A stretch of DNA of 64,000 nt from Nanobdellota archaeon (GCA_021813435.1 JAKAKR010000013.1:120107-184106), one strand, 5' to 3'. Shown: positions 15,508 to 36,303, counted from the stretch's first letter. Numbers and translations: made by a program. The notes: a model not told the origin generated them from the letters alone.

Positions 15508-15529
15508 GCAATACGCTAAAATAATACAT

Positions 15530-15961
15530 TCATGACAGGGCATGTGCGGCAGTAGCGCGTAATTGTGCGATCTTCTTTTCTGTCTCCACGACTTCCTGCG
15601 GGATATGGTCAGTGATTTTTATGGTTGAAACACGCACAGTGAGTATGCGTTCATCGGTTTTGCGCGGGAGCGCTTTGAGCGCAGTGATAGTCATATACTC
15701 TTCTGTTGTCCGCGCGACTGCATACTGATGCCATCCGTTCAGCAATACCAATTGCACTGGTTTTTTGTTATGGTCAAGATGCAGTGTGATGACTTGTTCA
15801 AGATCCTCGAATGGACTAAAGAGGTTAAAGATAAAATAATTCCCTTCCTGATGCGGGATCCACAATGTTGATTCTATGGTCAGCCAGCGGAATGGCGCTC
15901 CATGCTCTAGTTCAGCCTCAAAGATTCCCCGTACACCCCAATAGTCTTCAATCATCGGCAT
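15530..15961 (-). CDS. stand-alone 'FRW' module protein (type A), unknown function
   Basis: 143 aa. GIFEAELEHGAPFRWLT...FNLFSPFEDLEQV...NGWHQYAV...RILTVRVSTIKITD aligns residue-for-residue with internal segments of the 19808 and 34549 ORFs. Confidence 0.6.
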   Translation of the reverse strand: MPMIEDYWGVRGIFEAELEHGAPFRWLTIESTLWIPHQEGNYFIFNLFSPFEDLEQVITLHLDHNKKPVQLVLLNGWHQYAVARTTEEYMTITALKALPRKTDERILTVRVSTIKITDHIPQEVVETEKKIAQLRATAAHALS

Positions 15962-16007
15962 ATTGTTCTCCGGTCATTCCTCTTGTTGTTTTTCTATTTT
16001 AATTATA

Positions 16008-17351
16008 TTATCTTAATTGTTGCTCCTTGAGTTGCCCAAGGGCAAGATGCGTCTTTCCTGCAGCGACAGTATAATAGAGCGCAAGATGCTGCTTGAGCAG
16101 TTCATCGGACTGGAAATATTCCTGACGCTTTCGTGCATGCGCGATGATGCGCCCTTTTTCTGCAGGAGAGAGTGCAAGCGCCTTCTCCATCTGTTTTTCA
16201 AGGCTGCGCGAATCCTTATTCTTGAACAACAATCCATTGACTCCTGAACGCGCGATCTGTTCAGCATAACCGCTGCCGTCTGCCGCGACAACGAGCGCTC
16301 CTGTAGCCATGGCCTCAGTGCAGGTATACCCGAAGGGTTCCATGATACTTGGCAGGACGACGAATTCGCAGGATCGCATGAGCGCATAGACGCGTGACCG
16401 GATTGTTGATGGCCTGAAATGAATCCGGTCCTGCAGGTCGCTAAGCTCCTGCATATAGTACTTGATGATTGCAACAGTCTCTTCCTCAGTATTGAATCCT
16501 ACGATATAGAGATGAAGATTAGGATGTCTGCGCAGGACTGGACCTATTGCACGCGCAAGTACCATAAGACCTTTCCGGTACTCGATTCTCCCCACATACA
16601 GGATAAATGGAGTCGTGATGCGCAGTGACTGCAGCGTCTCCTCACGTTCGGTAAATATTGATTGCGCATGAAGCGCATAATGCGGAATGTAGAGATAGGA
16701 AAAGTTTTTTCCTTTATGTCCCTGCAGATGATACACGGATTGCGTGAGCTGCATTGTCGCTTTGGAATTTGCGACTACGAGCGCAGATCGACGGTATTGA
16801 AGCGATTCCATATAATAGACAAGCCGCGACTGGATCCTGTCCATGAATTTTTCTTTGTGTTTTGCGTGAGCAGTGGTCGCGGCGGTCGCAGTGGTTGCGA
16901 TTGCATTGGCAGCATTCCTATTCAACCATTCGACAAGAAAACTGCTCCCGTGCGCGCGGGTGATGACTGGTTTTTTGCAGAAGAGCGTGATGAGCAGTGA
17001 TGAACCGGAAACATCGTCGGACTCGATGATGTCAAAATCGTATTGTCGTTCTAACTCTTTGAACCGCTTATAGAGTATGATATCCTCGATGAAAAAGGTG
17101 ACAAATTTCGGCATAAAGAAATAGCGCAGTTGTTTCACAAGGCGCATCTTCTTATTGTCCTCAGGAATACGGATCCCATGGATATGCACGCCATTTACTT
17201 CGTAATCTTCCTCTTTACCGTACGAGAGCGAGATGATGTGGACAGTATGCCCGTGCCCTGCAAGATACGGTGTGATGGATTCAAGATAGGTTGCAATCCC
17301 CCCTGCATAAAATCTCCAGGGTTGGTCCTTTGCGATAAAGCAGATATTCAC
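16008..17351 (-). CDS. GT4-family glycosyltransferase
   Basis: 447 aa with a GTG start. The C-terminal EPFGYTCTEAMATGALVVA (E-x7-E region) is typical of GT-B/GT4 enzymes. Confidence 0.8.
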   Translation of the reverse strand: MNICFIAKDQPWRFYAGGIATYLESITPYLAGHGHTVHIISLSYGKEEDYEVNGVHIHGIRIPEDNKKMRLVKQLRYFFMPKFVTFFIEDIILYKRFKELERQYDFDIIESDDVSGSSLLITLFCKKPVITRAHGSSFLVEWLNRNAANAIATTATAATTAHAKHKEKFMDRIQSRLVYYMESLQYRRSALVVANSKATMQLTQSVYHLQGHKGKNFSYLYIPHYALHAQSIFTEREETLQSLRITTPFILYVGRIEYRKGLMVLARAIGPVLRRHPNLHLYIVGFNTEEETVAIIKYYMQELSDLQDRIHFRPSTIRSRVYALMRSCEFVVLPSIMEPFGYTCTEAMATGALVVAADGSGYAEQIARSGVNGLLFKNKDSRSLEKQMEKALALSPAEKGRIIAHARKRQEYFQSDELLKQHLALYYTVAAGKTHLALGQLKEQQLR

Positions 17352-17374
17352 AAGAGAAAAAGGCTTTATTCGTC

Positions 17375-17384
17375 TATTTAAATA
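17375..17384. promoter_or_regulatory. shared divergent TATA-like box
   Basis: tatttaaata lies 24 nt from the GT4 start (17351, minus strand) and 19 nt from GTG 17403 (plus strand). A second box, tatttaaaaa at 17437-17446, lies 20 nt upstream of ATG 17466. Confidence 0.4.
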
Positions 17385-17465
17385 TTGTGACTGAAAGATG
17401 CAGTGTATTTTCCGACAAGCCTATTAAAACGAAAAGTATTTAAAAAGTTTTACGGTGTGCGTACC

Positions 17466-19817
17466 ATGGGGGTACACCATAAAGCAAACGATAGTGTGAG
17501 TACTATAAATGCAGAGAGTATGCACGCGGCAGATACCCTGTTCTTGTTCAAGGGAAAGGAATCTTTTGCGCGCATCACGCGCAGGATATCACTCACCCCG
17601 CAATCGATCAATCGCACGATTTCTGTCATCATACCGACCATGAATGAGGATACTGCGGTGCTCGAAGAGCAAATCGCATTCTTACAGCAGCAATCCTACG
17701 CGCCAATGGAGATCATCATTGTTCTTGACAATCCTAAAAGAAAATTTTCGCGAGAATTTTCCAGAGCGCATCATGTGCGTATCATCACCCACCATAAAAA
17801 TCTTGGACGGTCTGCGGCGCGCAACACTGGCGCAAGAAACGCGCAGGGAGAGCTCCTGGTGTTTGCAGATACAGGAGTAGTATTCCATAACAGTGATACG
17901 CTCGAGCGCATCAACAGGTTCTACAGCAATCCACACAACAGCAGGGTCATCCTCAAGCCGCGGGTGCTTCCTCATATCGAGCATTATGGGACGCATGCAT
18001 TCATCTGCGGCACTGATGCTGCAAAGGCAAAATTTGCGCGGCAGGAAAACTTCAGCGAGGAACGCTTCAGTGCAGTGCAGGATTTTGAAAGCAATTTTTT
18101 TGCAGTTGCTAAGCAGCAATTTGAAAAATATCCTTTTGACGAGGAATATGGCACGCGATGGGGATGGGAAGACACGGACTGGATACGCGGACAGCTCGTA
18201 CAGGACAGCATACTGGTACCCACTGGAACCATTGTTGCAAAAACCGGACTGCATGCAATAGAAGAAGACATCATTGCGCTTATCCATAAGCAGGTTCTCG
18301 GCATTGCAAATCTTAGACGATATGAACGCCGCTGGAAAAAGAAATTTCCGAAAGAGACTGCACTACTCGCCAAGGAATATCTCTACGGCAAGCACAAAAC
18401 AGCGCAAGAGTATCGCAAACTCTTCAGAAAATCATCCATTGCAGGGATCATGGCGCAACTCATCAGCACGTACCGCGATATCCATGCGCGAAACGCCGCG
18501 TTATATCTGATTCCCAAACGATTGTCTTACCGTGAATCCGAGGTGCTCTGGGAGATTATCCGCACTGCAATGGCATATACCTACCATCATGATGAGAAAG
18601 AACTTCATACGATTGTTACGCATCTTGCGCCGCTCATGCAAAAAAATACCCGCAACCCATTCAGGATACTCAGAGATTCCCTGCATCGCAGGAGGATACA
18701 GCGACTTGCGCCACAGGGGCCTATGTGCACTCCGAATGATTTCGCGCTCTGGGAACGATTCTCCTGCGCAATCAAAAAACAGCGCCGGATAAGCATCATC
18801 ATACCGACCATGGGTGAATGCGATGAACTGGCGCAGCAGATTGCGACAATCACAAAACAATCCTACGCGCCGATGGAAATTATCATTGTCCTTGACAATC
18901 CGTTAGAAGCAGAGCGCATGCAGGAATGCGCCCAGAAAGAGGGGGGGATTGTGCGCGTCATCACGCATCCTCAAAATCTTGGACGGTCTGCGGCGCGCAA
19001 TACTGGCGCAAGAAACGCGCGTGGGGATATTCTCGTATTTCTCGACACGGGCGTACTCCTCCATGACACCGACATTCTCGAACGTATCAACGCATTCTAT
19101 GGCGATCCCAGAAATGAGAATGTTATCCTCAAACCGCGCGTACTCGCAAATATCGAGGAATACGGGACATATGAATTCCTCACGAATAACTACGAGTATC
19201 CTTTCAGGTTCAGCGTGGAAGAAGGCACTGAGGAAAGGACAATTGATAATTTCCCAGCATTCCTGAGTAATTTTTTCATCATAAGAAAGGAACGGTTCCA
19301 GAGATACCCATTTGCTGAAGAGTTCGGGACGCGTTGGGGAGCTGAAGATTGTGACTGGGCAATAGGCCAGATCAACACGAGCTCAACGATCATACACACC
19401 AACAGTATTGTCGGGTTGCAGCAAAAAGCGCATACACAATCTCTTGAGCGCCATATCCATAGCAAACTCGAGGGGATATATAACCATATCCTTTGCGGAA
19501 GGAAATGGGAGAGGAGCGTATTTTCGAAGATACTCACGAGCTGCAGGCATTACTATATTTTTACCGAGGACTGGTATCGCAGTAGAGTGATTGCCACCTG
19601 CAATGACCCGCAGGCAGAACAGCATATCAGAAGGTATGTAGAGGCATATCGCGCGTTGCGCAAAGAATACGCACAGTACTCGCTCATCCCTCAGGTATGC
19701 GCGATGCATGAGATGCGTCTCTACCGGTTCATCACTGCGCTCATCACCTATTATGCCTCAACACATTTCTCGACATGGGAAGAATATCAGGCATGGGGTG
19801 ATGCCCTATGTCGTTAG
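17466..19817 (+). CDS. tandem double GT2 glycosyltransferase (internal duplication)
   Basis: Two ~340-390-aa modules each contain I(I/V)IPTM..., QSYAPMEIIIVLDNP, NLGRSAARNTGARNA, LVF.DTGV and YPF.EE.GTRWG.ED.DW. The start is ambiguous (GTG 17403 or ATG 17466). Confidence 0.8.
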   Translation: MGVHHKANDSVSTINAESMHAADTLFLFKGKESFARITRRISLTPQSINRTISVIIPTMNEDTAVLEEQIAFLQQQSYAPMEIIIVLDNPKRKFSREFSRAHHVRIITHHKNLGRSAARNTGARNAQGELLVFADTGVVFHNSDTLERINRFYSNPHNSRVILKPRVLPHIEHYGTHAFICGTDAAKAKFARQENFSEERFSAVQDFESNFFAVAKQQFEKYPFDEEYGTRWGWEDTDWIRGQLVQDSILVPTGTIVAKTGLHAIEEDIIALIHKQVLGIANLRRYERRWKKKFPKETALLAKEYLYGKHKTAQEYRKLFRKSSIAGIMAQLISTYRDIHARNAALYLIPKRLSYRESEVLWEIIRTAMAYTYHHDEKELHTIVTHLAPLMQKNTRNPFRILRDSLHRRRIQRLAPQGPMCTPNDFALWERFSCAIKKQRRISIIIPTMGECDELAQQIATITKQSYAPMEIIIVLDNPLEAERMQECAQKEGGIVRVITHPQNLGRSAARNTGARNARGDILVFLDTGVLLHDTDILERINAFYGDPRNENVILKPRVLANIEEYGTYEFLTNNYEYPFRFSVEEGTEERTIDNFPAFLSNFFIIRKERFQRYPFAEEFGTRWGAEDCDWAIGQINTSSTIIHTNSIVGLQQKAHTQSLERHIHSKLEGIYNHILCGRKWERSVFSKILTSCRHYYIFTEDWYRSRVIATCNDPQAEQHIRRYVEAYRALRKEYAQYSLIPQVCAMHEMRLYRFITALITYYASTHFSTWEEYQAWGDALCR

Positions 19818-22800
19818 ACAAGTCCGCGCGATCAATCTGTTTTATCATTGTCTACCTGGGAGCGTTTCCTGCATACTTACGCGTATTTCTCGAGGGATGC
19901 AAACGTAATAGCGATATTGACTGGATTATATTCCATGATCACGACCCGCATATCACTCCGCCTGCAAATGTCCGATTCGTCCCATTGGATCATACGGCAC
20001 TCATTAATCGCATCAAGGAAAAGACAGGTTTTGATGCAAAGATTTCTCATCCCTATAAATTAGTGGACTGCAAACCGCTCTATGGACATCTCTTCGAGGA
20101 GTATCTCACGGGCTACGCATTCTGGGGAATCACTGACCTTGACGTGATCTATGGATCAGTGCGGCGATTCATTACCGACGGTATCCTGCGGCAGTATGAC
20201 ATTATCACTGCATACGAAACATTTCTTGCAGGGCACTTCACACTGTTCCGGAACACCCCATTCATCACCCGATTGTATCTGAATAATCCTATGAGTAAGC
20301 GCGTTATAGAAAGTCCTGACCGATTTGTCTCAGTCTATGATGAGCGCAGTTTTGACTTGCTTGTCCGTAAAGAAGAGCAGAAAGGATTATTGCGCGTCTA
20401 TCGCAAGGACTTGGTGCTTGCCTGTACTGATGAGCGTTGGTATTTTGAATGGTACAAGAATACAGTGACCACGCACCAACAATATTACCCTGAACCGGAT
20501 GAAGTGCATCAACCGCTCGTTGATAAAACAGTGCGTGAGCGGGATTATGGGCCTGCAGACATTCGGGATGGCGGGGTGTTTCATCATAAGACAGGAAGAG
20601 AATATCTCTACATGCATCTTAAGGAATGGAAAGAAAATCTATCCCTGCATGCAATCCCCGGAATCGATTATGCGCAGTGTCATATTGATGATAAAGGGAT
20701 CTATGCATTGACAGGAAACAAGAGTATTGACCGGATATTGCCCCGCATCTATCGCATTGCAGCAGGGATGAATGTCCAGGGCAAAAGAGGACGCCGCAAT
20801 GCATTAACAATGCGCGGGACACCGATCAGGCGCAGGAAGAAAGCGATTGTGACGTTTGCTGACAGGAAATATATTGAACAGGCAAAACAGGTCTACACAA
20901 GTATTGCAACACATGCCGGATGGGATGGCGATTATATCCTGCTTACACCAGGTATCCCTGCGTATGCAGCAACATGGTTCGAAAAGCGGGGGGTTATTGT
21001 AAAGCAATGCTATGAATTCATGACAACTGAGGAAAAAGAAAAGACAGACACTGAAGCAAGACTTGATCCTGTTGCATTCATGAAGTGCTGCCTTTTTAGT
21101 CCATGGTTTACGCAATGGAAACATATCATCTACGTCGATGCAGACACGATTGTCAATGGCCCGCTGGATGAACTTGCAAGAGTCAAGGGACTATATGCAG
21201 TGCGGGATTATGTGGTTGATTATGCAACCCCGCTTCGCTATCAATTCATGAGTCGCAGGAACAAAACCGAGCATCAAAAGCATAAGCTCATCGCTGAACT
21301 CGAGCAGCGGATGGATTTTGACCAGCCCGCATTCAACAGCGGCGTCATGGCGTTCTCGACAGACATCATACGGCCCGATACATTTGCAACACTCATCGCG
21401 CTTGCACGAAAATATCTTGAGGTCGCCTTATACCATGACCAGGGGATACTCAATATCTACTTTTATGATCAATGGAAAGAACTACCGATCCCCTACAATT
21501 TCAATCCCCATGCAATCAGCGAGTACACTGACCTCACGCAGGAAAAGATCGATAAGATTAATGTCATCATCTATCATTTTCCCACACCGATGGATAAGCC
21601 CTGGAATCCGGGGCATCCGTATTATCAGCTCTGGACTGATCATTATAATAATCGTGAGTCCTTGGGATCATTCACCGCGCGCCCTTTGCGTAAACCGCGG
21701 GTGAATCACGCAATGATTGCTGCAGGGGATCGCGCGCTGCGCGCCGCATTGCGTTCCCATTATCATATCCTTGAAGGGATATTTGAAGAGGAGAATGATC
21801 ATGGAACGGCATTTCGCTGGATGACACGCCGGGCAAGAGTAATCTTGCCGGAGACTGCAGGATCCTCTATTATATTCAAACTCTTCAGTCCGTTTCCTGA
21901 CTATGAACAGATGCTGACCATCACTTCGCCGGATACCGAAGTGCATCATCTGAAATTGCGCAGCGGCTGGCATACGTATGCAGTGCCGCGAGAGAGAGGA
22001 AATACCTGTACACTCGAAGCTATGCAAACGCTTTCTGAAGATATTGATGATCGCATTCTTGCAGTGCGGATTGCATCAATAACCACCAGTGACACTGTTC
22101 CTGAAGGATCAATATCTGAGACAGGAGACAGCAGAGGCAGGATGATTACACATACGCGGGAAATACAATCACGGCTCGACCCGCTCAGGAGCGATGGGAT
22201 CTTTCCGATCATTGATGTCGAGGTCACGCTGAAATGTAACCAGTCATGCATGAACTGCATAAAATTCTGCAACAAACAGGATATGACCGGGATTGATTAT
22301 AGTGCATCAGCGCTGACTGAAAAGCAGATACAAAAATTTATTGATGATGTCAAACGCGTGTATCAACGCACTGGCAAAAAGGTTGCAGGAATCATATACC
22401 TTACGGGTGGCGAGCCGCTGCTCCATCCGAAGATCGTGGAATTTTTCTTTATGATCAAAAAGGAATTATGTGATACTGGTATATGCAACGGCGTATTCAT
22501 CAACTCCAATCTTACTGTACCGATTCCTGCAGTGCTCGAGCCATTCATTGTAAATTTTGTGCCGATCAGCGAGAAATCCCAAGCGCATCAGGCAGTCTTT
22601 GCGCATCCATTGGATTATGGACAGAAAGCTCCTACATATCAGACATGCACGCATTATCGCAAATGGACTGTCGTGTATCATTATGGCGGGTATAATGTCT
22701 GCTGCGCTGCTGACGGATATATTCGATTGTTTAATCGCACCGCATTGTTCTGTGACACGCTTCCGGATAATTTTGCAGGATTTCCTCTGGACAAGATGGA

Positions 22801-22972
22801 TGAGGTATGCCAGCATTGCGCCTTTGGCTGTCCTGAACCAGTCCTTGAAAGAAATCATGGAATGCCGGTATCGGATATCTATCTTCGCGCAGGAATAGAG
22901 AACAAGAAACGCCATCACGACGAAATAAACACAAAAACACAACAAAGATCCAACAGAAATAGACTGGAATAA
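19808..22972 (+). CDS. four-domain fusion: DUF6625-like putative GT + GT8 + FRW type-A module + radical SAM with Cys-rich C-terminal (SPASM/twitch-like) region
   Basis: 1054 aa. aa 8-290: YKLVDCKPLYGHLFEEYL..YAFWGITDLDVIYG. aa 345-605: DADTIV (DxD), FNSGVMAF, HDQGILN (GT8). aa 650-762: FRW module. aa 800-1015: CNQSCMNC (CX3CX2C), YLTGGEPLL, then C-rich CTHY..VCCAADG..CQHCAFGC. The start overlaps the upstream stop by 10 nt. Confidence 0.75.
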   Translation: MSLDKSARSICFIIVYLGAFPAYLRVFLEGCKRNSDIDWIIFHDHDPHITPPANVRFVPLDHTALINRIKEKTGFDAKISHPYKLVDCKPLYGHLFEEYLTGYAFWGITDLDVIYGSVRRFITDGILRQYDIITAYETFLAGHFTLFRNTPFITRLYLNNPMSKRVIESPDRFVSVYDERSFDLLVRKEEQKGLLRVYRKDLVLACTDERWYFEWYKNTVTTHQQYYPEPDEVHQPLVDKTVRERDYGPADIRDGGVFHHKTGREYLYMHLKEWKENLSLHAIPGIDYAQCHIDDKGIYALTGNKSIDRILPRIYRIAAGMNVQGKRGRRNALTMRGTPIRRRKKAIVTFADRKYIEQAKQVYTSIATHAGWDGDYILLTPGIPAYAATWFEKRGVIVKQCYEFMTTEEKEKTDTEARLDPVAFMKCCLFSPWFTQWKHIIYVDADTIVNGPLDELARVKGLYAVRDYVVDYATPLRYQFMSRRNKTEHQKHKLIAELEQRMDFDQPAFNSGVMAFSTDIIRPDTFATLIALARKYLEVALYHDQGILNIYFYDQWKELPIPYNFNPHAISEYTDLTQEKIDKINVIIYHFPTPMDKPWNPGHPYYQLWTDHYNNRESLGSFTARPLRKPRVNHAMIAAGDRALRAALRSHYHILEGIFEEENDHGTAFRWMTRRARVILPETAGSSIIFKLFSPFPDYEQMLTITSPDTEVHHLKLRSGWHTYAVPRERGNTCTLEAMQTLSEDIDDRILAVRIASITTSDTVPEGSISETGDSRGRMITHTREIQSRLDPLRSDGIFPIIDVEVTLKCNQSCMNCIKFCNKQDMTGIDYSASALTEKQIQKFIDDVKRVYQRTGKKVAGIIYLTGGEPLLHPKIVEFFFMIKKELCDTGICNGVFINSNLTVPIPAVLEPFIVNFVPISEKSQAHQAVFAHPLDYGQKAPTYQTCTHYRKWTVVYHYGGYNVCCAADGYIRLFNRTALFCDTLPDNFAGFPLDKMDEVCQHCAFGCPEPVLERNHGMPVSDIYLRAGIENKKRHHDEINTKTQQRSNRNRLE

Positions 22973-22998
22973 ACCGTGAAACTGGCGCGCATAACGGT

Positions 22999-23166
22999 TA
23001 GTTGCGGACATAACTACGCTATCATTTAGCGTCTTCTCGCTCTCATCGAAGTGTAAACGGAGTATTGTCATCTCCGAAGGAGCCAACCCTCTGACAATGT
23101 TCTAAAATTGTCGGATATTCGCTCGCCTTAGGACGCTAAATGATAAGAAACTTTTGTCTGCAACTA
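22999..23166. repeat. 168-nt element bounded by 35-nt imperfect terminal inverted repeats (28/35 matches)
   Basis: Left arm tagttgcggacataactacgctatcatttagcgtc. Reverse complement of the right arm tagttgcagacaaaagtttcttatcatttagcgtc. The interior contains nested or alternative hairpins (ATTGTCA/TGACAAT, CTCC-GAA-GGAG). It lies between the stop at 22972 and the next TATA-like box (23179-23188). Confidence 0.6.
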
Positions 23167-23210
23167 GGTTTGAGTAATCTTTTTAAAGACGGGGATGATT
23201 TGCAGAACAT

Positions 23211-23492: not shown

Positions 23493-23504
23493 GGAGAACA
23501 GCAC

Positions 23505-24629: not shown

Positions 24630-24767
24630 TGCATAAACGCTGCAGAACTATGCCGCTGCATCGTGAGGGATGCAAATTAAAAAAATTTAAATAACAAGAA
24701 AAAAATAATGCAACATCGAGAATGATCAGGGATCATCCTGGAATAAAAAGGTGTGGGGGGTTTAAAG

Positions 24768-26837: not shown

Positions 26838-27495
26838 GAAGTACCTCAAGCAGGGAATAGTTCTTGTTTTTTTTTCAGTGATCACACTAGTCATGTTCGG
26901 ATCCCTTATCAGCATCTCCGGATGCGCAACCTCCGGGACTATCTCGAGTCAGAATGCAAGCACTGCATCGCAGGATAAGGATCTAGGGAATCACAACATA
27001 CTCGGCCGAGTATTTATTGCAAGCAGGTCTCTTTTCAACCAGACCTATTATGAGTTTGATGATGGCAATGAGAGCATCACGCTCAAGAGCATTCCTCATG
27101 TTGATGCAGTGGTTGCAGAATCATTGGTCTCTGACCGGCTCACACTGTTCAGATCAATCTTTGAACCCAAACGTGTCGACTATCCCGGGGCCTACACGCA
27201 AACCATCATCTGCCCTGAGGAATACAAGCCGAAATATGATGAGATAAATCTTACCGCGCAATCCGCGAGTACTGAGAACAGCGGCGCATACCTTAAGTAT
27301 TTTGTGGGATACGCCAACAGCAATAAAGTCGCAGGGGCATGCAGTGCTGACCTCATCGCCTACCATTACGCCTATGGATTCATGTACTGCCCAGGAGCGC
27401 AATCACTTGTCGAGATTGAATATTACGCAGTGCTTCCGCTCAATACCACGCAATCATTCATGAAAAACCTTGATTGCACGATGCTCAAAGAATAA
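26821..27495 (+). CDS. putative lipoprotein, unknown function
   Basis: Signal peptide with lipobox SISGC. It overlaps the upstream gene by 17 nt. I recognise no motif. Confidence 0.5.
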   Translation: MRSSNKKYLKQGIVLVFFSVITLVMFGSLISISGCATSGTISSQNASTASQDKDLGNHNILGRVFIASRSLFNQTYYEFDDGNESITLKSIPHVDAVVAESLVSDRLTLFRSIFEPKRVDYPGAYTQTIICPEEYKPKYDEINLTAQSASTENSGAYLKYFVGYANSNKVAGACSADLIAYHYAYGFMYCPGAQSLVEIEYYAVLPLNTTQSFMKNLDCTMLKE

Positions 27496-27506
27496 TAAGA
27501 ATAAGT

Positions 27507-29396
27507 ATGATGACAACACGAAAACAGGCGCTCACGCAAGACCGACCATACGCATTGTTCTGGTGCATTGTACTTCTTATTATCGTCATGATCACTGCCG
27601 GATGCGCGACAAAGGATACGCCCCCGCCACAAGAAGGATCCATCAATCTCTCCTGCCCGAACTGCAATATTATCCTACTTAATGTTGAGTTATTCCGCGC
27701 AGATTACATCGATCTCATCAGTACCGAGCATGGAAACAACACCCCGAATATCGACAGGTTCTTCAATAATTCAATCATATTCACTGATGCCTCAGCGCCT
27801 GCAGGATCGACCATCCAGAGCAATATTGCAGTCCTCACTGCCGAAAATCCTTTTATCATTAACCAGATACTTACCAAGAGATACCCGGGATATAATATTC
27901 TTCTCGACAAGAACGTTGATTATTTTACCGCATACCCGACGATCATACAATTGCTCAACAACGAAGGGTATTATACGGTTAATATCAATGAGGGCGGGCA
28001 TACCGGAAGATTCACATACATGGATAAGGGCGTTGACAATTATATTGAAGAGAGCGCATACGAGATGATGGGGATAAAATCTGCAAGAATGTTTCCGGCT
28101 ATTGCACGCACCATCACAGATCTCGAGAAGAATGAATCCCAAAAAAACAAGTTCTTCCTTCTTGCCCACAGCAACATCCTGCATAGTTCCCCGTATATTT
28201 ACCCCCTCAATCGATCACGGATCAATAGCTCGCTGATCAGGTATATCCCGATTTATGAAACAGGACAATACATGGTATTCGAGAATATCAGTACGGGAAA
28301 CCGCACCCCGGAATCATATGATAGCCCGGGATTCCACACCTGGTTTGAGGATTATGGATCAAAATTTCATGATATACCGCACTGGACCACTCAAAAGGAC
28401 AACACGCAGTATAAAGAAATAACGCAGCAACTGTATATACAGCAGGTGAAATACGTTGATGAAGAATTCGGAAAAATATTCGATCAGCTCGAAGAGAACA
28501 ATATGACTGACAATACCATCATCGTATTGTATGCAAACCATGGTGACGGACTCTTTGACAATGACGTGCCCGTGCATGACGTCGAATACCAATCATGCAT
28601 CCATGTCCCGATACTGATCAGGCATCCGCGAATCAATAAGACAATCGTTGTCACAACACCGGTCGCGCTCATTGACCTTATGCCTACAATCTATCATATG
28701 GTTTCTGAAAAAGAGCAGAATGGCACATTTGCAACCGCAGGACTTGCGGACGCCATGAGCGCAAAAAATTACACTCAAAAATATATCTTCGGTTTGAGCC
28801 AAAACCACGGCGATGAGTATGTACGAGATGGAGATATGAAATTACTCATACAAGCAAACAATGAAAAGACGCTCTATAATATCACCGCAGACCCGCATGA
28901 AGAGCACAATATTGCCGCGCAATATCCTGAGAAAGTAAAAGAATTAGACGATCTACTCATCACGCAGGAGATCGAATCAGAAAAAGAATACTATCGGCGG
29001 GAGGGACGCGATATAAACCTGACTGCAGCGCAGTATGAGATCATGAACGATGCATCATTTTATCACGGCTACGACAAGGAGCATAATGATGAGATATGGT
29101 ACCGATGGATAAGCGGGAATCATTCAGTCATAAGTCTTCCTGATAAGTATCATGGAAAGACTATCGAGATCCACGGAGGGTTTTTCTATTGCGAAAAGAA
29201 CCAGATGCGCCCGCAAATACGCATCAACGGGATCACAGTCACTGCATTCCCATTCAATACCACGCTCAATTCAACAAATATCACGTTCGAATCGCAAAAA
29301 GCCATGCGACCCATTGACTGCACAGTAAGCGCGAAAAGCGACGACACGAGATACCTTGCAGTATACATCGACAGCAACACACGAGTGATAAATTAA
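27507..29396 (+). CDS. lipobox-anchored sulfatase-like AP-superfamily enzyme with C-terminal FRW type-B module (paralogue 1)
   Basis: Lipobox ITAGC. ADYIDLISTEHGNNTPNIDRFF, APAGSTIQSNIAVLT, LYANHGDGL and DPHEEHNIA motifs. The last ~117 aa form the type-B module (WYRWISG...GGFFYC...RPIDC...TRYLAVYIDSNT). Confidence 0.75.
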   Translation: MMTTRKQALTQDRPYALFWCIVLLIIVMITAGCATKDTPPPQEGSINLSCPNCNIILLNVELFRADYIDLISTEHGNNTPNIDRFFNNSIIFTDASAPAGSTIQSNIAVLTAENPFIINQILTKRYPGYNILLDKNVDYFTAYPTIIQLLNNEGYYTVNINEGGHTGRFTYMDKGVDNYIEESAYEMMGIKSARMFPAIARTITDLEKNESQKNKFFLLAHSNILHSSPYIYPLNRSRINSSLIRYIPIYETGQYMVFENISTGNRTPESYDSPGFHTWFEDYGSKFHDIPHWTTQKDNTQYKEITQQLYIQQVKYVDEEFGKIFDQLEENNMTDNTIIVLYANHGDGLFDNDVPVHDVEYQSCIHVPILIRHPRINKTIVVTTPVALIDLMPTIYHMVSEKEQNGTFATAGLADAMSAKNYTQKYIFGLSQNHGDEYVRDGDMKLLIQANNEKTLYNITADPHEEHNIAAQYPEKVKELDDLLITQEIESEKEYYRREGRDINLTAAQYEIMNDASFYHGYDKEHNDEIWYRWISGNHSVISLPDKYHGKTIEIHGGFFYCEKNQMRPQIRINGITVTAFPFNTTLNSTNITFESQKAMRPIDCTVSAKSDDTRYLAVYIDSNTRVIN

Positions 29397-29417
29397 ATGT
29401 AGGCAAAGGCAAACAAC

Positions 29418-31331
29418 ATGAAAGCACGGAAAAAAACATCGCGGAGAAGATATCTTGTACTTGCATTGCTCATGAGCTGCATGTTCATCATTGCAGGATG
29501 CTCAGGGGATCATGTACGCACACAAAAGGAAGAGCTAATTGATCTCTCCTGCCCGAACTGCAATGTCATCTTTCTTAATATCGAACTATTACGCGCAGAC
29601 TACGTAGACCTCATCAGCACCGAGCACGGCAACAACACTCCAAATATCGACAAATTCTTCAATAATTCAATTATATTCACTGATGCATCAGCACCTGCAG
29701 GATCAACAATCCAGAGCAACATCGCAACACTTACTGACACCGATCCCTACATTATCGATCAGATCATCAAGCAAGGGTATAAACAACAAGAGGCATCCCC
29801 CCATGCTATTTCGCTTGGAAACACCTCATACCACAACAACCTCTTGAACCGGACCATTGCAGAGAGATTATCCGCCGAGGGGTATCACACTATCGATGTC
29901 AATGATGGCATACACGCAGGACGATATACTTCCATGGATGTAGGATTCAATGAATATAATGAAGAAACAGAATCAGGAACGCCAGAGGGCATGCGATTAA
30001 ATGCAGCACTGGTACGCACACAGGAGATAATCCAGAAAGAGAGCACGATACTTTACAAGAGCGATAACCTCCAACCCCTGAACAGAACCAATCACACTAC
30101 AAATAAATTCTTTCTTTTGCTCCACAGTAATCTCCTGCACGCGCTCCCCTATGCATATCCACTCAATCGATCAAGAATCATCGCACCGGAATTAGCATAT
30201 CTTAAATATGATGGCCTGCAATATAAATTATTTCTCGATTATCATCCCGAACAAGAACGCCCGAAGGACATGCAGGACAGTATGTTTAAGGAGTGGGCAT
30301 TACAGCACACCTGCAGTTATGGACAGACATGCTATACGAGTGAATCAGCATACCAACGCTACCATGCACTTGCGCATCAAGCCTATGCACAACAAGTACA
30401 ATATATTGATGAGGAGCTCGGAAAGATATTTGATGAGATTGAATCGCAGGGATTGATGAATAACACTATTATCGTCCTCTACTCCAATCATGGCGACGGA
30501 CTACTCGATAATAATGTTACGAATCATGATGTGTCCTACCAATCCTGCATCCACGTACCGCTCCTCATCAGACATCCCAAAGTCCACCGGCAATTACGGG
30601 TGGAGACGCCGGTTGCAATGCGTGATCTTGTGCCAACAATTACTGCGATGGTGCAAACGAAAAATACTACAACAGAAAGAAGTGTTGATCAGGGATTATT
30701 GCCCGCAATAACCAATCAGACGTATACACAGGAATATCTCTTCGGGCTCAGCAACGGGAAGTATGTCCGGCAGGGCGACATGAAATTGATCCTATTCTCG
30801 AGAAATAATCGTGAACTTTACAATATTACCGCAGACCCTCATGAAGAGCATAATATTGCAGCGCAGTATCCAGAAATCGTAAAAGAACTGAGCGATGCAT
30901 TATTTGCGCATGATATTGCAATGCAAGAAATACTCAAGAAAGAATTCAACATCAACGCGATATACCCCTACACCGTATATGACGAGGCAACATTCAAGAA
31001 TTTCTATGAGTGGGAATATGCCGCAGAAACACGTTTCCAATGGACAAGCGGTAAGCATGCTAGTATAGAGATCCCTGCAGTATACCTCGGAAGAACCATC
31101 GATATCCACGGAGGATTTTTCTATTGCGAGAATAACCAAACGCGCGCTCAAGCAAGGATCAATGGGGTCCCCATCACTGCATTCCCATTCAACATCACAC
31201 TAAACACGACAACACTGGATTTCGAATCCGATGATGCGATGCGACCGATAGATTGCGCGGCGAGTACGAAAAGCGACGACACGAGATACCTTGCAGTATA
31301 CATCGACAGCAATACACACATCATCAACTGA
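29418..31331 (+). CDS. lipobox-anchored sulfatase-like AP-superfamily enzyme with C-terminal FRW type-B module (paralogue 2)
   Basis: Lipobox IIAGC. It carries the same motif set as paralogue 1, and the two genes share long identical DNA stretches. Confidence 0.75.
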   Translation: MKARKKTSRRRYLVLALLMSCMFIIAGCSGDHVRTQKEELIDLSCPNCNVIFLNIELLRADYVDLISTEHGNNTPNIDKFFNNSIIFTDASAPAGSTIQSNIATLTDTDPYIIDQIIKQGYKQQEASPHAISLGNTSYHNNLLNRTIAERLSAEGYHTIDVNDGIHAGRYTSMDVGFNEYNEETESGTPEGMRLNAALVRTQEIIQKESTILYKSDNLQPLNRTNHTTNKFFLLLHSNLLHALPYAYPLNRSRIIAPELAYLKYDGLQYKLFLDYHPEQERPKDMQDSMFKEWALQHTCSYGQTCYTSESAYQRYHALAHQAYAQQVQYIDEELGKIFDEIESQGLMNNTIIVLYSNHGDGLLDNNVTNHDVSYQSCIHVPLLIRHPKVHRQLRVETPVAMRDLVPTITAMVQTKNTTTERSVDQGLLPAITNQTYTQEYLFGLSNGKYVRQGDMKLILFSRNNRELYNITADPHEEHNIAAQYPEIVKELSDALFAHDIAMQEILKKEFNINAIYPYTVYDEATFKNFYEWEYAAETRFQWTSGKHASIEIPAVYLGRTIDIHGGFFYCENNQTRAQARINGVPITAFPFNITLNTTTLDFESDDAMRPIDCAASTKSDDTRYLAVYIDSNTHIIN

Positions 31332-31437
31332 AAGAGGCATAACGTAACGCGATGACAGCAGAAGAGATTAAGCAATATTACTCAGGGGTAAACATTTATA
31401 AAGTCTGCCACAGCGTAGCAAAGTGAAGTGAATTATC

Positions 31438-32463
31438 ATGAAAATACTTATCATTAACCCGCTTGACGAGACGAATCTCGACGGGAAAAAAGGCGGCAAT
31501 CAACGTTTTGCAGAGGCACTTGCAAAAAATATCCGCAAGCACACCACCCACACGGTCGTTGAGAAATACACCCACTTTGATGACCATAAGCTGCGCAATA
31601 TCATCAATGCCTATATTGAGAATCGGAAGATCAATTGCCGCGGATATGACGTAGTCATTTCCATAAAATTCCCGAGTTATGTTATCCGGCACAAGAATCA
31701 TATATCACTCATCAATCATCGCATGCGGCGATACTATGATCTCTGGCCTGAATATAAAAAATCACTCCAGGGCGCCAAGCTTTGGGGGCAGATGCTAGCG
31801 CGCATGCTCTTTCATGTCGTCGATTCCTATTATCTCAAGAGGGTGAAAAGAATCTATGCGCAATCAGGAGTCATCAAGCATCGGCTTGCGCGTTCAGGCA
31901 TCCCATCACAAGTCCTCAATCCGCCAGAGACTATGCGTGGACTTACAAAGGGAAAATACCAGTACTTCCTGCTTCCCGGAAGACTCTACGATACAGGAAA
32001 GCGCGTCAGTCTTGCTATCGACGCGATGAAACAGGTCAAGGGCAATGTCAAACTGATCATTACTGGTGACGGGGGAGATGCTGCGGCGCTGCGTGAGCGT
32101 GCACGCAGTGATCCACGGATAATGTTTACAGGCTATATCAGCGAAAGAAAGCTTGCAGCACTCTACAAGGACGCACTTGCAGTCATCTTTATTCCTGTAG
32201 CAGAAGATTATGGCCTTGTCGCAGTCGAGGCGATGAAATGCGCAAAGCCTGTCATTACCTGCACGGATTCCGGCGGACCGACTGAACTTATCAAGAATCG
32301 TCGTAATGGTTTTATCTGCCCTCCACGTCCTGACCGCATCGCTTCCTGCATGACATACTTTGCAAAGAACAAAGCTGCAGCAAAGCGCATGGGCGCGCAG
32401 GCATACGCAGACACCCAATCCATCAACTGGAAGGATTATATCAGGAAAATCCTGCAACCATAA
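31438..32463 (+). CDS. GT4-family glycosyltransferase
   Basis: 341 aa. EDYGLVAVEAMKCAKPVI and TGGPTELI are typical of GT-B/GT4 enzymes. Confidence 0.8.
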   Translation: MKILIINPLDETNLDGKKGGNQRFAEALAKNIRKHTTHTVVEKYTHFDDHKLRNIINAYIENRKINCRGYDVVISIKFPSYVIRHKNHISLINHRMRRYYDLWPEYKKSLQGAKLWGQMLARMLFHVVDSYYLKRVKRIYAQSGVIKHRLARSGIPSQVLNPPETMRGLTKGKYQYFLLPGRLYDTGKRVSLAIDAMKQVKGNVKLIITGDGGDAAALRERARSDPRIMFTGYISERKLAALYKDALAVIFIPVAEDYGLVAVEAMKCAKPVITCTDSGGPTELIKNRRNGFICPPRPDRIASCMTYFAKNKAAAKRMGAQAYADTQSINWKDYIRKILQP

Positions 32464-32474
32464 CTTTTTTAACA

Positions 32475-33227
32475 ATGATCGATGTGAACCTTATCAAGGA
32501 ACTGGTGAAGACTGATTTCAAACTGAAATATTACGGATCATTCCTCGGATTTTTCTGGTCGCTGCTCAAGCCCTTTCTCATGCTCGGAATCCTCTACTAT
32601 GTATTCACCTATTTCATCAAGGTCCAGATAGAGAATTTTGCACTCTTCCTGCTCCTCGGCATCATCATCTGGAACTATTTTGTCGATACCACCTATGATA
32701 GCATGAATGCGATCACCGGCAAGAGATCAATACTGAGCAAGACAAAACTATCGCCTGCAATCATTGTCGTCAGCGCATCAATCCAACCTGAAATCACACT
32801 TTTCCTGAACCTTGTCGTCTTTTTCCTCATCTTTTTTTTCAGCGGGCATGCTATCGGAATGGAATTCTACTATTTCATCATCCTCATGGCACTCCTGATG
32901 CTCACGGCAACCGCGATATCGCTTGTCCTTATCTTTTTCCATGTCCGATTCATGGATTTCCGTCATATCTGGGATGTGTTCATCCAGATACTCTTCTGGG
33001 CGACGCCAATCGTCTACAATCTCGATTATGTCTCCCTCAATTTCCAGCGATGGTTCCTGCTCAACCCCATTGCACGCATAATCGTCGATGCGCGGGCAGT
33101 CATCCTCTATAATACGCTTCCAGAACCAAAGCAGATGATGATCACGCTCATTATTGTATTCATCATCAGTGTCGGATGCTATTATATCTACCGCATGACC
33201 CGCAACCGGATGGCTGATCTCCTATGA
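32475..33227 (+). CDS. ABC-2 type polysaccharide/teichoic-acid exporter permease (Wzm/TagG-like)
   Basis: 250 aa, 6 TM. The N-terminal DFKLKYYGSFLGFFWSLLKP motif is typical of ABC-2 permeases. It overlaps the ATPase gene by 4 nt. Confidence 0.8.
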   Translation: MIDVNLIKELVKTDFKLKYYGSFLGFFWSLLKPFLMLGILYYVFTYFIKVQIENFALFLLLGIIIWNYFVDTTYDSMNAITGKRSILSKTKLSPAIIVVSASIQPEITLFLNLVVFFLIFFFSGHAIGMEFYYFIILMALLMLTATAISLVLIFFHVRFMDFRHIWDVFIQILFWATPIVYNLDYVSLNFQRWFLLNPIARIIVDARAVILYNTLPEPKQMMITLIIVFIISVGCYYIYRMTRNRMADLL

Positions 33228-33991
33228 TCACTGCAAAAAAGATATCCAAAGAATATTACATCCCGCATATCAGAAAGACAACGCTATTTGAGAAACTGCT
33301 CAGTCTTGTGCGGGAACATCGCAAGATGGAAAAGTTCTATGCATTAAAGGATATTTCGTTCGAGGTGCAGAAAGGAGAGATCTTTGGCATCATCGGAAAG
33401 AACGGGAGCGGCAAGACAACACTGCTCAAGATCATCGGAGGGATTATCCCGCCAACGACAGGAACAGTCACTGCGACCGGAAAGGTTGTCCCATTTCTCG
33501 ACCTTGGCATCGGATTCCACCCAGAACTCACGGCGCGGGAGAACATCTACCTGTATGGCGCAATCATGGGCATGAGCCGTGAACAGATTACGCGGGAATT
33601 CAAGGAGATCCTGCGATTTGCAGGGGTCGAACGTTTCGCAGACATGAAACTCAAGCATTTCTCTGCAGGAATGGCCATGCGACTCGCATTCTCGACCATG
33701 ATCCGCACTGCATTCGACGCCATTATCCTTGACGAGGTCTTTGCGGTCGGCGATGGCGAATTCCAGAAGAAGTGTATGATAGAATTGCTTAAATTCAAAA
33801 AGCAGGGCAAGACCATCATCATCACGAGCCATGCCATGGATCCCATCATGGACTTTTGCGACCGCGCAATGCTTCTCGAGAATGGGACTGTCAAGATCAT
33901 CGGAAAGCCGCGGGATGTAGTCATGGCATACGACCCTGAGAGTGTCACGAAGAGAAGAAGATTGCGAAAATCCGCAGATAGTATCATATGA
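33224..33991 (+). CDS. ABC exporter ATP-binding protein (Wzt/TagH-like, no C-terminal carbohydrate-binding extension)
   Basis: Walker A GKNGSGKTTLLK, signature FSAGMAMRLAF and Walker B AIILDE. It is only 255 aa long. Confidence 0.85.
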   Translation: MITAKKISKEYYIPHIRKTTLFEKLLSLVREHRKMEKFYALKDISFEVQKGEIFGIIGKNGSGKTTLLKIIGGIIPPTTGTVTATGKVVPFLDLGIGFHPELTARENIYLYGAIMGMSREQITREFKEILRFAGVERFADMKLKHFSAGMAMRLAFSTMIRTAFDAIILDEVFAVGDGEFQKKCMIELLKFKKQGKTIIITSHAMDPIMDFCDRAMLLENGTVKIIGKPRDVVMAYDPESVTKRRRLRKSADSII

Positions 33992-34111
33992 AAAAAGTAA
34001 TGCATACCATGCATGCACTGACAAAGCAGCAAGAGAGCGCGCCAGCATCACCAACGATCTCGATCACCCTAATACTTTGCGCAGGACTAATTATACTGCT
34101 GCTTATCACTT

Positions 34112-34372
34112 CTACAGATTGCAGCCGCAGAGCAAGCGCAGTGCAAACCCGCGTCCCCGAGTTTCGAGCCGCAAGTAGCGGACTGTACGCAGTGCCTGCG
34201 CCAGACGCCGGCCAATCCGTGCAGTGGCGTCGGTGCGGATATTATCTGCGATGAGAATCGTGTACGTGTAGGGGAATCGCGATGATTTGAGAAAATCGAT
34301 GAGTGTGCGCACACTTGCAGCTAGCTGCTTCTCTTCATTGTAGACCGGTAGGACGATGAGGACACACGCCAA
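34112..34372 (-). pseudogene. GT2 glycosyltransferase N-terminal fragment
   Basis: VLIVLPVYNEEKQL...ILIADNIRTDAT...RGRGFAL, then a premature stop. A full GT2 would continue for about 150 more residues. TTG start. Confidence 0.55.
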
Positions 34373-34548
34373 ATGATATCTATAGTTTTTTATAGTTTTT
34401 TGAAAAATAGATCAGGGATCATTCCCAAAAAAACTCATTACAGAAAAATATTGTTTAAAAATGTTGCGACAAGATTGACGTGACGCAGTATCTGTGATCA
34501 GTATCTGGATAGATAGCATTTACCAAGCGTTCACCAAGATGAGTATAA

Positions 34549-36303
34549 TCAGTGCACTAATTTTCGGAATAGGCCGTGTACCTTGCGCGGCATAACCTCA
34601 TGAATCGTCTTGACCTCGGCTTCAGGATGCTCAGTGAGATATTTTTGCACGATCGGACAGGATTTGCTCTCCAGACAGTACTTGCTGAACCCTCCCTGCG
34701 CAAGGTGCGCGCGGATTTCCTGCATCATATCACAATTCCATAATTCTTTATATTTATCCATCGGACCGAGCGGCCGGTAACTGTAACAGCAGAATTTCAC
34801 TCCTGCACGCAAGATGTAACCTGATTCCCAGGGTTCGCGACAAATGGGCGGCGCAGAAACAAGTTTTGTGTCGCGGCGAAAAATTTTTGATGCAGATGCC
34901 GCAAGTTTTGCAGTCTTTGCAGAAAACGTAGACCTTTGGGGAGAAGGCGCTGCATGCGCAGAAGCTGATGAGGCAACAGGAGTGGCAGAATCGCCGGAAG
35001 AATCACGAAGAGAGTCATGAGGAGAATCACCGGAAGAACCAGAAGAAGAATCGCAAGCAGAATCGCATTGTGCAAAGCATGTTCGCACTGCAGACTCATC
35101 CGGCGCCGCCGTATCCTGTTCTGAAGCGAGCAGTTCCTCCTCAATACTGTTCTGGAAGTTGAGTTGGTCAACAAGGCGCACACCATACTTTTTTGCGAGT
35201 TTTCGCGCTTTGATAGATATCGGGATGCGCTCTTCACGACTGAATTTTTCCTTATGATAATCAAAGACATGACCTCCCCGTGGCTCGAGTGGCCCGGGAG
35301 TGAATGAATCATATAATGGTCGCAGTATCATGACATCGACTTTGAGATCGGCGCATAACTTGATAAAATCCTCGAGTTCATGGACATTGAGCCGCATGGG
35401 CATGAATACCAGATAGACTGCAGGCGCGCTTTGCAAGCCCCGCTCCTGAATCAATGCACGGATATTGTCAATAATGCGCGTGAAGGCATTGGATCGTAGT
35501 TTTGCGTAGGTTTCAGGGGTTGCAGCATCGATTGAGATATAGAGATTGATGTGTTTCCCGATGAGGAGCGCGCGATTTTTCGCATTGAGAAGAATTCCAT
35601 TCGTCGACATCTCAAGCATTTTCCCGTTCGTTTCAAACGCGTCAAGTATTTCTGCGATCTGCGGTGAGAGGAATGGTTCGCCAATCGAACAATTCGTCAA
35701 TTGCGCGCAGTGCGTAAAAAATGATCCGTATTCTTTTAGGGTATCTAGAGTGAATGGTGCATGGGTGAATGCCCCCTCCTTTCGCTTTGCATCATCAAAC
35801 TCGCAATAGACGCAGGAAGGCTTGATATTGCAGGTCCCGTTGATGTCAATCCCGAGACGCACCGGATAGGATTGCAGTACTATTTTTCCCTGCATGAATT
35901 CTTCGGTATTCAGTAGGGTATTCTGTGTGATGATGCTTTTCGGAGTTTCGGGAGTATCACTGAACTCCACGTTCCCTAATCGTACCGTGAGCGTTCGTGG
36001 ATCCAGCGGCGCTTCGATCTTTTTGTTTATCTTGAGAACAAGACGTTTGCCCGGAATTCGCGGAATAGTGTAAGTGTTCCAGAGAAAGGCTAATTGCAGT
36101 CGTTTCACGAGTTTTCCATCGATAAAACATTCGACCACTTGTGATCGGTCAAAAAAGTCGCTGTACAGGTCAAGGTGGATATATGCGCCAGGAGCATCCA
36201 GAAGCAGGATGCTGGCTTCAAAAGTGCACCATCGAAATTTGATAGTCCCGTCAGTTTCAGGATTATGGAATCCATACTCATAACATTCTTCTGCAAGAGA
36301 CAT
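34549..36303 (-). CDS. FRW type-A module + radical SAM + SPASM-domain protein with a Ser/Asp-rich insert
   Basis: aa 1-115: FRW module. CNIKPSCVYC cluster motif (CX5CX2C). CSIGEPFL. aa ~393-478: low-complexity region. C-terminal SPASM-like PICREPW..GVKFCCYSY..WNCD..KYCLESKSCPI. Confidence 0.75.
   Translation of the reverse strand: MSLAEECYEYGFHNPETDGTIKFRWCTFEASILLLDAPGAYIHLDLYSDFFDRSQVVECFIDGKLVKRLQLAFLWNTYTIPRIPGKRLVLKINKKIEAPLDPRTLTVRLGNVEFSDTPETPKSIITQNTLLNTEEFMQGKIVLQSYPVRLGIDINGTCNIKPSCVYCEFDDAKRKEGAFTHAPFTLDTLKEYGSFFTHCAQLTNCSIGEPFLSPQIAEILDAFETNGKMLEMSTNGILLNAKNRALLIGKHINLYISIDAATPETYAKLRSNAFTRIIDNIRALIQERGLQSAPAVYLVFMPMRLNVHELEDFIKLCADLKVDVMILRPLYDSFTPGPLEPRGGHVFDYHKEKFSREERIPISIKARKLAKKYGVRLVDQLNFQNSIEEELLASEQDTAAPDESAVRTCFAQCDSACDSSSGSSGDSPHDSLRDSSGDSATPVASSASAHAAPSPQRSTFSAKTAKLAASASKIFRRDTKLVSAPPICREPWESGYILRAGVKFCCYSYRPLGPMDKYKELWNCDMMQEIRAHLAQGGFSKYCLESKSCPIVQKYLTEHPEAEVKTIHEVMPRKVHGLFRKLVH

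Follow-up and report, generated by a model that had tools for sequence, protein, structure and literature searches.

An unnamed, predicted jelly-roll module associated with radical SAM enzymes recurs in a glycan-assembly cluster of a Nanobdellota archaeon

Main

In bacterial O-antigen pathways that depend on ATP-binding cassette (ABC) transporters, the carbohydrate-binding module (CBM) of Wzt reads the terminal modification of the glycan and gates its export (PMC9445017; PMC11231755), and the polymerase WbbM combines two glycosyltransferase (GT) modules in one protein (PMC11231755). Here we describe a protein module, which we call FRW after a conserved F-R-W motif, that recurs in a stretch of DNA from a Nanobdellota archaeon (GCA_021813435.1 JAKAKR010000013.1:120107-184106). 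The whole stretch of 64,000 nucleotides (nt) is the window to which our call of seven module copies refers. It holds a large glycan-assembly cluster of the ABC-transporter type, with a carbamoyltransferase, GT2, GT4 and GT8 enzymes and a Wzm/Wzt-like exporter, as well as sulfatase/phosphodiesterase-family proteins and SGNH hydrolases.

The original prediction, made from the sequence alone, had noted the module three times. That count holds for a close subtype, type A; the superfamily has four further copies in the window, which we call type B. With belief and doubt about evenly balanced, we propose that the module is a non-catalytic substrate-targeting domain, which would bind a polymer, most likely a glycan or lipid-linked glycan, and hold an enzyme on it. 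Binding is suggested by the predicted fold and by the domain architectures.

Three homologous type A copies

Translation of the open reading frames (ORFs) 15530-15961(-), 19808-22972(+) and 34549-36303(-) bore out the three segments at the places first proposed. The longer two are referred to below as the 19808 and 34549 ORFs. The type A copies, with lengths and positions in amino acids (aa) where relevant, are:

15530-15961 (-): stand-alone type A gene, 143 aa (141 aa in the public gene call, P0001)
21749-22105 (+): type A copy at aa 646-768 of the 19808 ORF; BLASTP, profile E 3.5e-25
35941-36300 (-): type A copy at aa 1-121 of the 34549 ORF; BLASTP, profile E 8.7e-26

In the stand-alone ORF the module proper lies at about nt 15593-15949. 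BLASTP aligns the stand-alone copy with the 19808 copy at 40% identity over 116 aa (E 2.8e-30), the 19808 copy with the 34549 copy at 33% over 110 aa (E 5e-18) and the stand-alone copy with the 34549 copy at 27% over 117 aa (E 1.3e-14). The three segments are therefore homologous, as proposed, with every pairwise value far below the E value of 0.01 that had been named as the limit of significance. A profile built only from sequences outside the window finds the stand-alone ORF at E 1.9e-20.

The three-way alignment is nearly free of gaps and has 24 invariant columns, including F-R-W and D-x-R-x-L-x-V-R. Those in the first part are G12, E17, F24-R25-W26, T28, G40, L47, S49, F51, D53 and Q56, followed in the second part by L71, L73, W77, Y80, R84, D103, R105, L107, V109, R110, D118 and P121. 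The pattern of shared columns in the original prediction stands essentially as written, except that its 'GW' reads 'LW' in the 34549 copy. The Fe-S cluster motif was also correctly placed about 40 residues past the module in both fusions (from near 767 to 810 in the 19808 ORF and from near 121 to 158 in the 34549 ORF). The proposed absence of a signal peptide applies to the stand-alone and 34549 ORFs, in which none was seen, and is qualified in the 19808 ORF by one hydrophobic stretch (aa 9-27), which lies inside a DUF6625 match beginning at aa 12.

Cytoplasmic-protein features are supported for the type A copies by their sequences: they have no transmembrane (TM) segment and no N-x-S/T sequons, and the fused copies sit on Fe-S enzymes. 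Stand-alone genes resembling orthologues of 15530-15961 occur in a Woesearchaeota metagenome-assembled genome (MAG), as P0002 and P0004.

An unnamed family with radical SAM partners

The module could not be assigned to a named family, in keeping with the original prediction: it has no match among the sequence models of Pfam, NCBIfam or PDB. None of the three type A segments has a Pfam match even at E<=10. In NCBIfam, the stand-alone ORF matches nothing and the two fusions match only in their radical S-adenosylmethionine (SAM) core. Searches of PDB sequences with profiles of 3 and of 50 sequences gave no meaningful relative of the module; designed immunoglobulin (Ig) proteins at E around 1e-3 were judged not meaningful. 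By sequence, the module falls into none of the CBM families that are represented in Pfam and the PDB. Among 80 homologous proteins, no Pfam family covers the module, and the only recurrent families are Radical_SAM (27 proteins) and SPASM (6). The nearest relatives are named "hypothetical protein" or "radical SAM protein" by NCBI, and nothing that bears on the motif, the architecture or DUF6625 turned up in a literature search.

Word-indexed protein searches with the stand-alone ORF and with alignments of 3 and 50 sequences recovered nothing beyond the window's own protein and a single fragment. Because the word prefilter does not reach the family, only an exhaustive HMMER scan was informative. 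Run with a three-sequence profile over 1.84 billion representative proteins, it yielded 81 proteins at E<=1e-3, 21 of them at E<=1e-10, and local iteration of the profile gave 160 module copies in 85 proteins, with one to five in tandem. Of the 80 non-self matches, 78 show the module again with the iterated profile, and the fusion partners were counted among these.

At least 43 of the 78 proteins have a radical SAM cysteine motif, which supports a general association of the module with radical SAM enzymes, as opposed to a chance of this window. Building a hidden Markov model (HMM) from the three segments and tabulating the architectures of its matches had been the check first suggested, and it bears the fusion out. 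The gap after the last module is 13-72 residues (median 39). The motif is Cx5Cx2C in 35 of the 43 and Cx3Cx2C in 7; in 1 the radical SAM domain is N-terminal of the modules. Many of the proteins outside the 43 are metagenomic fragments. Other partners among the homologues are a PMT_2 (GT-C) glycosyltransferase, a sulfotransferase and an FkbM methyltransferase. The module is thus appended to carbohydrate-active enzymes (CAZymes), with DUF6625 and GT8 in the window and PMT_2 and sulfotransferase elsewhere, but radical SAM, its commonest partner, is no classical CAZyme.

One loop distinguishes the modules next to the enzyme. The motif S-x-[FY]-x-[DN]-x-x-Q occurs in 29 of 43 modules just before a radical SAM domain and in only 2 of 42 distal modules in tandem arrays, an enrichment that indicates a specific role beside the catalytic domain. 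It reads SPFPDYEQ in the 19808 ORF, SDFFDRSQ in the 34549 ORF and SPFEDLEQ in the stand-alone copy, which is therefore of the proximal type and stands without its enzyme. P0002 and P0004, the stand-alone genes of the Woesearchaeota MAG, keep the motif as well.

One conserved unit of module, linker and enzyme

The two fusions and their parts are:

19808-22972 (+): multidomain ORF, 1054 aa, with DUF6625, GT8, module and radical SAM/SPASM-like C-terminus
19841-20626 (+): DUF6625 at aa 12-273 of the 19808 ORF, Pfam E 8.8e-50
20846-21607 (+): GT8 at aa 347-600 of the 19808 ORF, Pfam E 3.5e-22
aa ~800-1054 of the 19808 ORF (+): radical SAM/SPASM-like C-terminus with CNQSCMNC and a GGEP motif
34549-36303 (-): radical SAM ORF, 584 aa, with module, linker of ~37 aa, radical SAM core and Cys-rich twitch/SPASM-like C-terminus

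CNQSCMNC (aa 810-817, nt 22235-22258) is a canonical Cx3Cx2C motif. In the 34549 ORF the corresponding CNIKPSCVYC (aa 158-167, nt 35803-35832) is a non-canonical Cx5Cx2C; its family-wide form is CN[IV]KPPCVYC, and the related unit in the 19808 ORF keeps Cx3Cx2C. C158, C164 and C167 and the motif NCSIGEP are invariant in the alignment of the 34549 family. On its three-cysteine motif and core profile match, we assign the 34549 ORF to the radical SAM superfamily: its best radical SAM match in NCBIfam has E 2e-19, below every family cut-off, and its homologues exceed the Pfam Radical_SAM cut-off. The assignment is weaker for the 19808 ORF, which scores 22.8 bits against the Pfam cut-off of 29.5 bits and matches NCBIfam radical SAM models at E around 1e-5. 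The NCBIfam family N_Twi_rSAM was matched at only 40.5 and 24.4 bits against a cut-off of 170, the matches starting past the N-terminal region of the model, and the 34549 protein had no usable match among PDB sequences. Between its radical SAM core and its Cys-rich C-terminal domain lies a Ser/Asp/Ala-rich, low-complexity insert (~aa 395-470), which is highly variable in length and sequence among homologues and missing in some.

BLASTP aligns aa 657-900 of the 19808 ORF with aa 11-241 of the 34549 ORF at E 3.9e-15. Module, linker and the N-terminal half of the radical SAM domain align as one block, and the pairing of module and enzyme is therefore ancestral. Proteins of the 34549 type share a fixed order: at least one module comes first, then a conserved linker (N..LN..E...G...L.S.P..LGID), then a radical SAM core that carries Cx5Cx2C and NCSIGEP, and last a twitch/SPASM-like end rich in cysteine (C.EPW...YILR.G...CC...C.....CP). 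In a scan that took one genome for each species, 301 genomes had relatives. Judged by sequence, module, linker and core are one conserved unit that defines an enzyme family in at least 301 genomes. A review lists a Cx5Cx2C group of RadicalSAM.org, 'Megacluster-4-10' (PMC9477430), which might be this family.

Counts of loci and taxa refer to the best 80 of the 301 genomes, with ORF calling in high-GC loci guided by GC content at third codon positions. About 65 are labelled Acidobacteriota (Vicinamibacteria, Thermoanaerobaculia and Aminicenantes), and the remainder includes Eubacteriales, Opitutaceae, proteobacteria, Gemmatimonadota and Limnocylindria. The closest relative, at 58% identity, is in the Woesearchaeota archaeon MAG. 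The radical SAM ORF bears one to three modules in 78 of the 80 loci, and most bacterial genomes have one module-bearing gene within +/-10 kb. Clustering of ORFs of at least 70 aa across the 80 loci revealed no conserved bacterial neighbourhood. A B12-binding radical SAM gene stands directly before the four-module radical SAM gene of L083.

A predicted beta-jelly-roll

Structure prediction with AlphaFold2 gave a pLDDT of 72.6 with the three sequences and, with an alignment of 50 sequences, a pLDDT of 91.3 and a pTM of 0.83 for a model with eight beta strands and no helix. Foldseek against the PDB gave a best E value of 2.5e-4, with template-modelling (TM) scores of 0.45-0.59 at 10-15% identity. 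The matches are remote, but all of the kind that is, or contains, a jelly-roll binding domain. They include CBM29, CBM6, CBM4, the CBM-containing peptidoglycan esterase Ape1 and full-length Cry toxins, and further matches are chains of the binding components of iota-toxin (Ib) and CDTb, including CDTb RBD1.

On this model the module is a beta-jelly-roll, the fold class of the beta-sandwich CBMs, with no close solved relative. The comparison with CBM folds that had been suggested at the outset thus came out positive, CBM29, CBM6 and CBM4 being among the best PDB matches.

Type B copies on exported and membrane proteins

An all-against-all comparison of the window proteins first revealed the type B copies:

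29040-29387 (+): C-terminus of the sulfatase-family protein 27474-29396; E 1.6e-5, HMM positions 13-121
30981-31319 (+): C-terminus of the sulfatase-family protein 29418-31331; E 8e-6
36889-37227 (+): entire ectodomain of the membrane-anchored ORF 36673-37239; E 7.2e-7
42498-42887 (+): C-terminus of the polytopic membrane protein 40971-42890; BLASTP to other type B copies

The link between the types was tested among 555 six-frame segments with a profile made solely of non-window sequences, those of the window being left out to avoid circularity. Nearly the full length of this profile matches three type B copies, at E 7.2e-7 to 1.6e-5. The fourth, 42498-42887, was not found directly by the type A-derived profile; its link to the rest of type B comes from BLASTP (E 6.5e-22 to 2.6e-14). 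A direct profile-profile comparison of the window's type A and type B copies was not significant (hhalign probability 8%), and only the larger family profile brought out the link. A tblastn match at 46495-46755(-), E 0.018, within a B12-binding radical SAM gene was put down to chance, the family profile not confirming it.

Type B copies have three to seven sequons and two conserved cysteines, and each carrier either begins with a TM or lipobox-like segment or contains many TM segments. The carrier 27474-29396 begins with a TM-like segment, and it and its copy have four sequons and two cysteines. ORF 36673-37239 has a TM-like segment at aa 17-35 and five sequons, with weak tblastn matches, and 40971-42890 has at least ten TM-like segments and seven sequons. 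By these sequence features, one superfamily appears to serve both sides of the membrane, type A inside and type B outside.

The glycan-assembly cluster

The cluster is syntenic with a contig of the Woesearchaeota MAG at 50-75% protein identity. The host is an archaeon, and genes in the flanks are those for TYW1, an archaeal-type signal peptidase I, a Hel308-type helicase and a methanogen-type thymidylate synthase. Its exporter is:

32475-33991 (+): Wzm/Wzt-like ABC-2 exporter, with permease 32475-33227 and ATPase 33224-33991

Four exported proteins of the sulfatase/phosphodiesterase family are encoded on the (+) strand (24753-26837, 27474-29396, 29418-31331 and 37217-38827). The C/S-x-P-x-R formylglycine motif is absent from all four, and they may be transferases or hydrolases of a different kind, or catalytically altered. 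Where a neighbour of the family in a bacterium has 'LDTQRAD', three of the window proteins have 'L[NI][IV]EL[LF]RADY'. The N-termini of the window's sulfatase-family proteins end in a lipobox-like '…AGC' or '…SGC'.

The block 45805-52358 encodes three B12-binding radical SAM proteins, one class I methyltransferase and one SPASM radical SAM protein, and a fourth B12-binding radical SAM gene lies at 38852-40753. On L085, an unrelated low-GC contig, two module proteins stand beside four B12-binding radical SAM genes, two methyltransferase genes and a SPASM radical SAM gene, a block that closely resembles 45805-52358. On L082, an unrelated low-GC metagenomic contig, three consecutive genes (8001-17646) have four, one and five modules and encode two PMT_2 proteins and one 1074-aa protein with the five copies. 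They are surrounded by GT2, radical SAM/SPASM, sulfatase, epimerase, pyruvyl-transferase (PS_pyruv_trans) and deacetylase genes. This was the densest use of the module met in the analysis.

Possible roles of the module

We propose substrate targeting because of the fold class, the tandem repeats, the varied polymer-tailoring partners and the presence on both membrane sides within clusters. CBMs typically occur in tandem arrays and on varied polymer-tailoring partners. The use of one fold inside and outside the membrane is easier to reconcile with recognition of a shared exported polymer than with a single protein complex, and several module proteins per cluster recur in L082 (three) and L085 (two). 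In the proximal subtype, the module, the conserved linker of ~37-43 residues and the radical SAM core with its twitch/SPASM-like end form one evolutionary unit. Because the ~40-residue linker is fixed and conserved and the loop is subtype-specific, the module may sit at the mouth of the radical SAM barrel, where it would offer the substrate for radical chemistry. In the 19808 ORF, this unit stands behind GT8 and DUF6625, which we take to be a glycosyltransferase, and might couple the synthesis and the radical tailoring of one polymer. The stand-alone 15530-15961 could be a proximal-type module that has lost its enzyme or works with it in trans, and the type B copies would provide the same targeting outside the cell for the sulfatase-family and membrane proteins of the cluster.

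Several points weigh against targeting. The likeness to known CBMs is remote (TM score around 0.5, 10-15% identity), jelly-roll folds also serve in protein-protein and other functions, and the conserved G12, E17, R25, W26, D103, R105 and L107 may be either a surface site or structural. SPASM/twitch radical SAM enzymes act on peptides and small molecules more often than on polysaccharides. Most bacterial genes of the 34549 type lie outside recognizable glycan clusters, among mixed neighbours (acetolactate synthase, HEAT, Rieske, methyltransferases, oxidoreductases and a sugar nucleotidyltransferase). Sulfatase-like genes occur in only 11 of the 80 loci and B12-binding radical SAM genes in 12, and the P0089 locus has a lipid- or small-molecule-like character (short-chain dehydrogenase/reductase, MaoC dehydratase and aminotransferase).

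A bolder version of the targeting proposal, which we think unlikely, is that the Cx5Cx2C radical SAM family acts on an envelope glycopolymer through a CBM-like module that archaea reuse across the membrane, with the stand-alone copy as a factor in trans. The chemistry could then be epimerization, dehydrogenation or the formation of C-C or C-X bonds. The archaeal module family would recruit every tailoring enzyme of the pathway across the membrane, and the stand-alone cytoplasmic copy would act like the binding domain of Wzt.

The module could instead be a docking or oligomerization domain that assembles the enzymes of a pathway or dimerizes the radical SAM protein, with the stand-alone copy as adaptor or scaffold. 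Stand-alone copies do exist in both the window and the related MAG, several enzymes of one cluster bear the module, the proximal loop motif kept by the stand-alone copy could mark an interface between module and enzyme, and the jelly-roll domain of Wzt also dimerizes. We nevertheless hold docking to be distinctly unlikely: arrays of up to five modules are better explained by avidity for a repetitive ligand than by a defined interface, and the single module gene within +/-10 kb in most bacterial genomes has no obvious partner. Nor could the carriers of type A and type B all dock together, because they are apparently on opposite sides of the membrane. A peptide or protein might also be the ligand, as for the RiPP recognition element (RRE) or the anaerobic sulfatase-maturating enzyme (anSME), and the radical SAM proteins would then be maturases, for example of the neighbouring sulfatase-family proteins. 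Peptide maturases likewise place a recognition domain at the N-terminus, before the radical SAM core and the SPASM/twitch end, the closest NCBIfam models are those of maturases (W_rSAM_matur, SCM and mycofactocin), and sulfatase-family genes, abundant in the window, are among the commonest neighbours in the 80 loci. The lack of the formylglycine motif in the window's sulfatase-family proteins, however, led us largely to reject an anSME-like role. The module is all-beta and not a winged-helix RRE, the GT-C, GT8, sulfotransferase and FkbM partners do not modify peptides, and no conserved adjacent gene appeared among ORFs of at least 70 aa, smaller ORFs of precursor length not having been searched for. 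Peptide recognition therefore seems improbable.

Most doubtful, in our judgement, is an export checkpoint in which the cytoplasmic modules, in trans or on the enzymes, replace the Wzt binding domain and read a terminal modification made by the radical SAM protein. It would suit the cytoplasmic features of type A and the Wzt-like ATPase of the cluster (33224-33991), which at 255 aa consists of ABC_tran only and has no C-terminal binding domain. But many Wzt proteins function without a CBM, and the loci of most family members have no adjacent ABC-2 exporter. The module itself shows no similarity to the Wzt C-terminus, matches no Pfam family at E<=10 and has no Wzt structure among its 50 best fold matches.

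If substrate targeting is correct, a domain family that is now blank in annotation would give a handle on several hundred entries named "radical SAM protein" or "hypothetical protein". Such entries are especially numerous in Acidobacteriota, which are abundant and poorly characterized soil bacteria. Radical SAM chemistry would extend to polymeric, probably glycan, substrates, for which there are few characterized examples, and recognition would fall to a CBM-like module in place of a peptide-binding RRE. In the assembly of archaeal cell-surface glycans, the tailoring enzymes of a pathway would be tied to their common product by one binding fold that comes in two versions, cytoplasmic and exported.

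Other features of the window

Outside the cluster, 4815-6404(-) encodes an apparent fusion of an MtrA-like domain (aa 27-143) with a methanogen-type thymidylate synthase (aa 190-428). The 288-aa product of 1184-2050(-) has a Cas4-like nuclease domain, with a TIGR00372 score of 57 bits, just under the cut-off of 65 bits. The 58-60 kb bin has a GC skew of +0.25 and an AT skew of -0.46. ORF 58262-59869(-) may be a repetitive surface protein; it has a weak match to a sorting domain of the type IX secretion system (T9SS), unexpected in an archaeon.

Comparison with known systems

The FRW module resembles CBMs of the CBM6, CBM29, CBM4 and CBM35 kind in its size of ~120 aa, its jelly-roll model and its single or tandem placement on enzymes that would act on polymers. 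It differs from the CBMs of CAZy in that no Pfam or PDB family matches it by sequence or profile and the likeness of fold is remote. Its partners are biosynthetic or tailoring enzymes, chiefly radical SAM proteins, and not glycoside hydrolases, and many copies appear to be cytoplasmic.

The RRE shares with the module the N-terminal, non-catalytic position before the radical SAM core and its SPASM/twitch end, whereas the module is all-beta, occurs in up to five repeats and also has glycosyltransferases and sulfotransferases as partners. Like WbbM, a polymerase with two GT modules (PMC11231755), the 19808 ORF begins with two such domains if DUF6625 is one, but it goes on into the FRW module and a radical SAM/SPASM-like domain.

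The closest functional precedent for a cytoplasmic jelly-roll that reads a glycan is the binding domain of Wzt. That C-terminal domain is likewise a cytoplasmic beta-sandwich in an ABC-type glycan pathway and reads the end of the finished polymer (PMC9445017; PMC11231755). The FRW module has no profile match to Wzt_C, and it is found off the ATPase, on radical SAM and GT enzymes or alone, and, as type B, apparently outside the cell as well.

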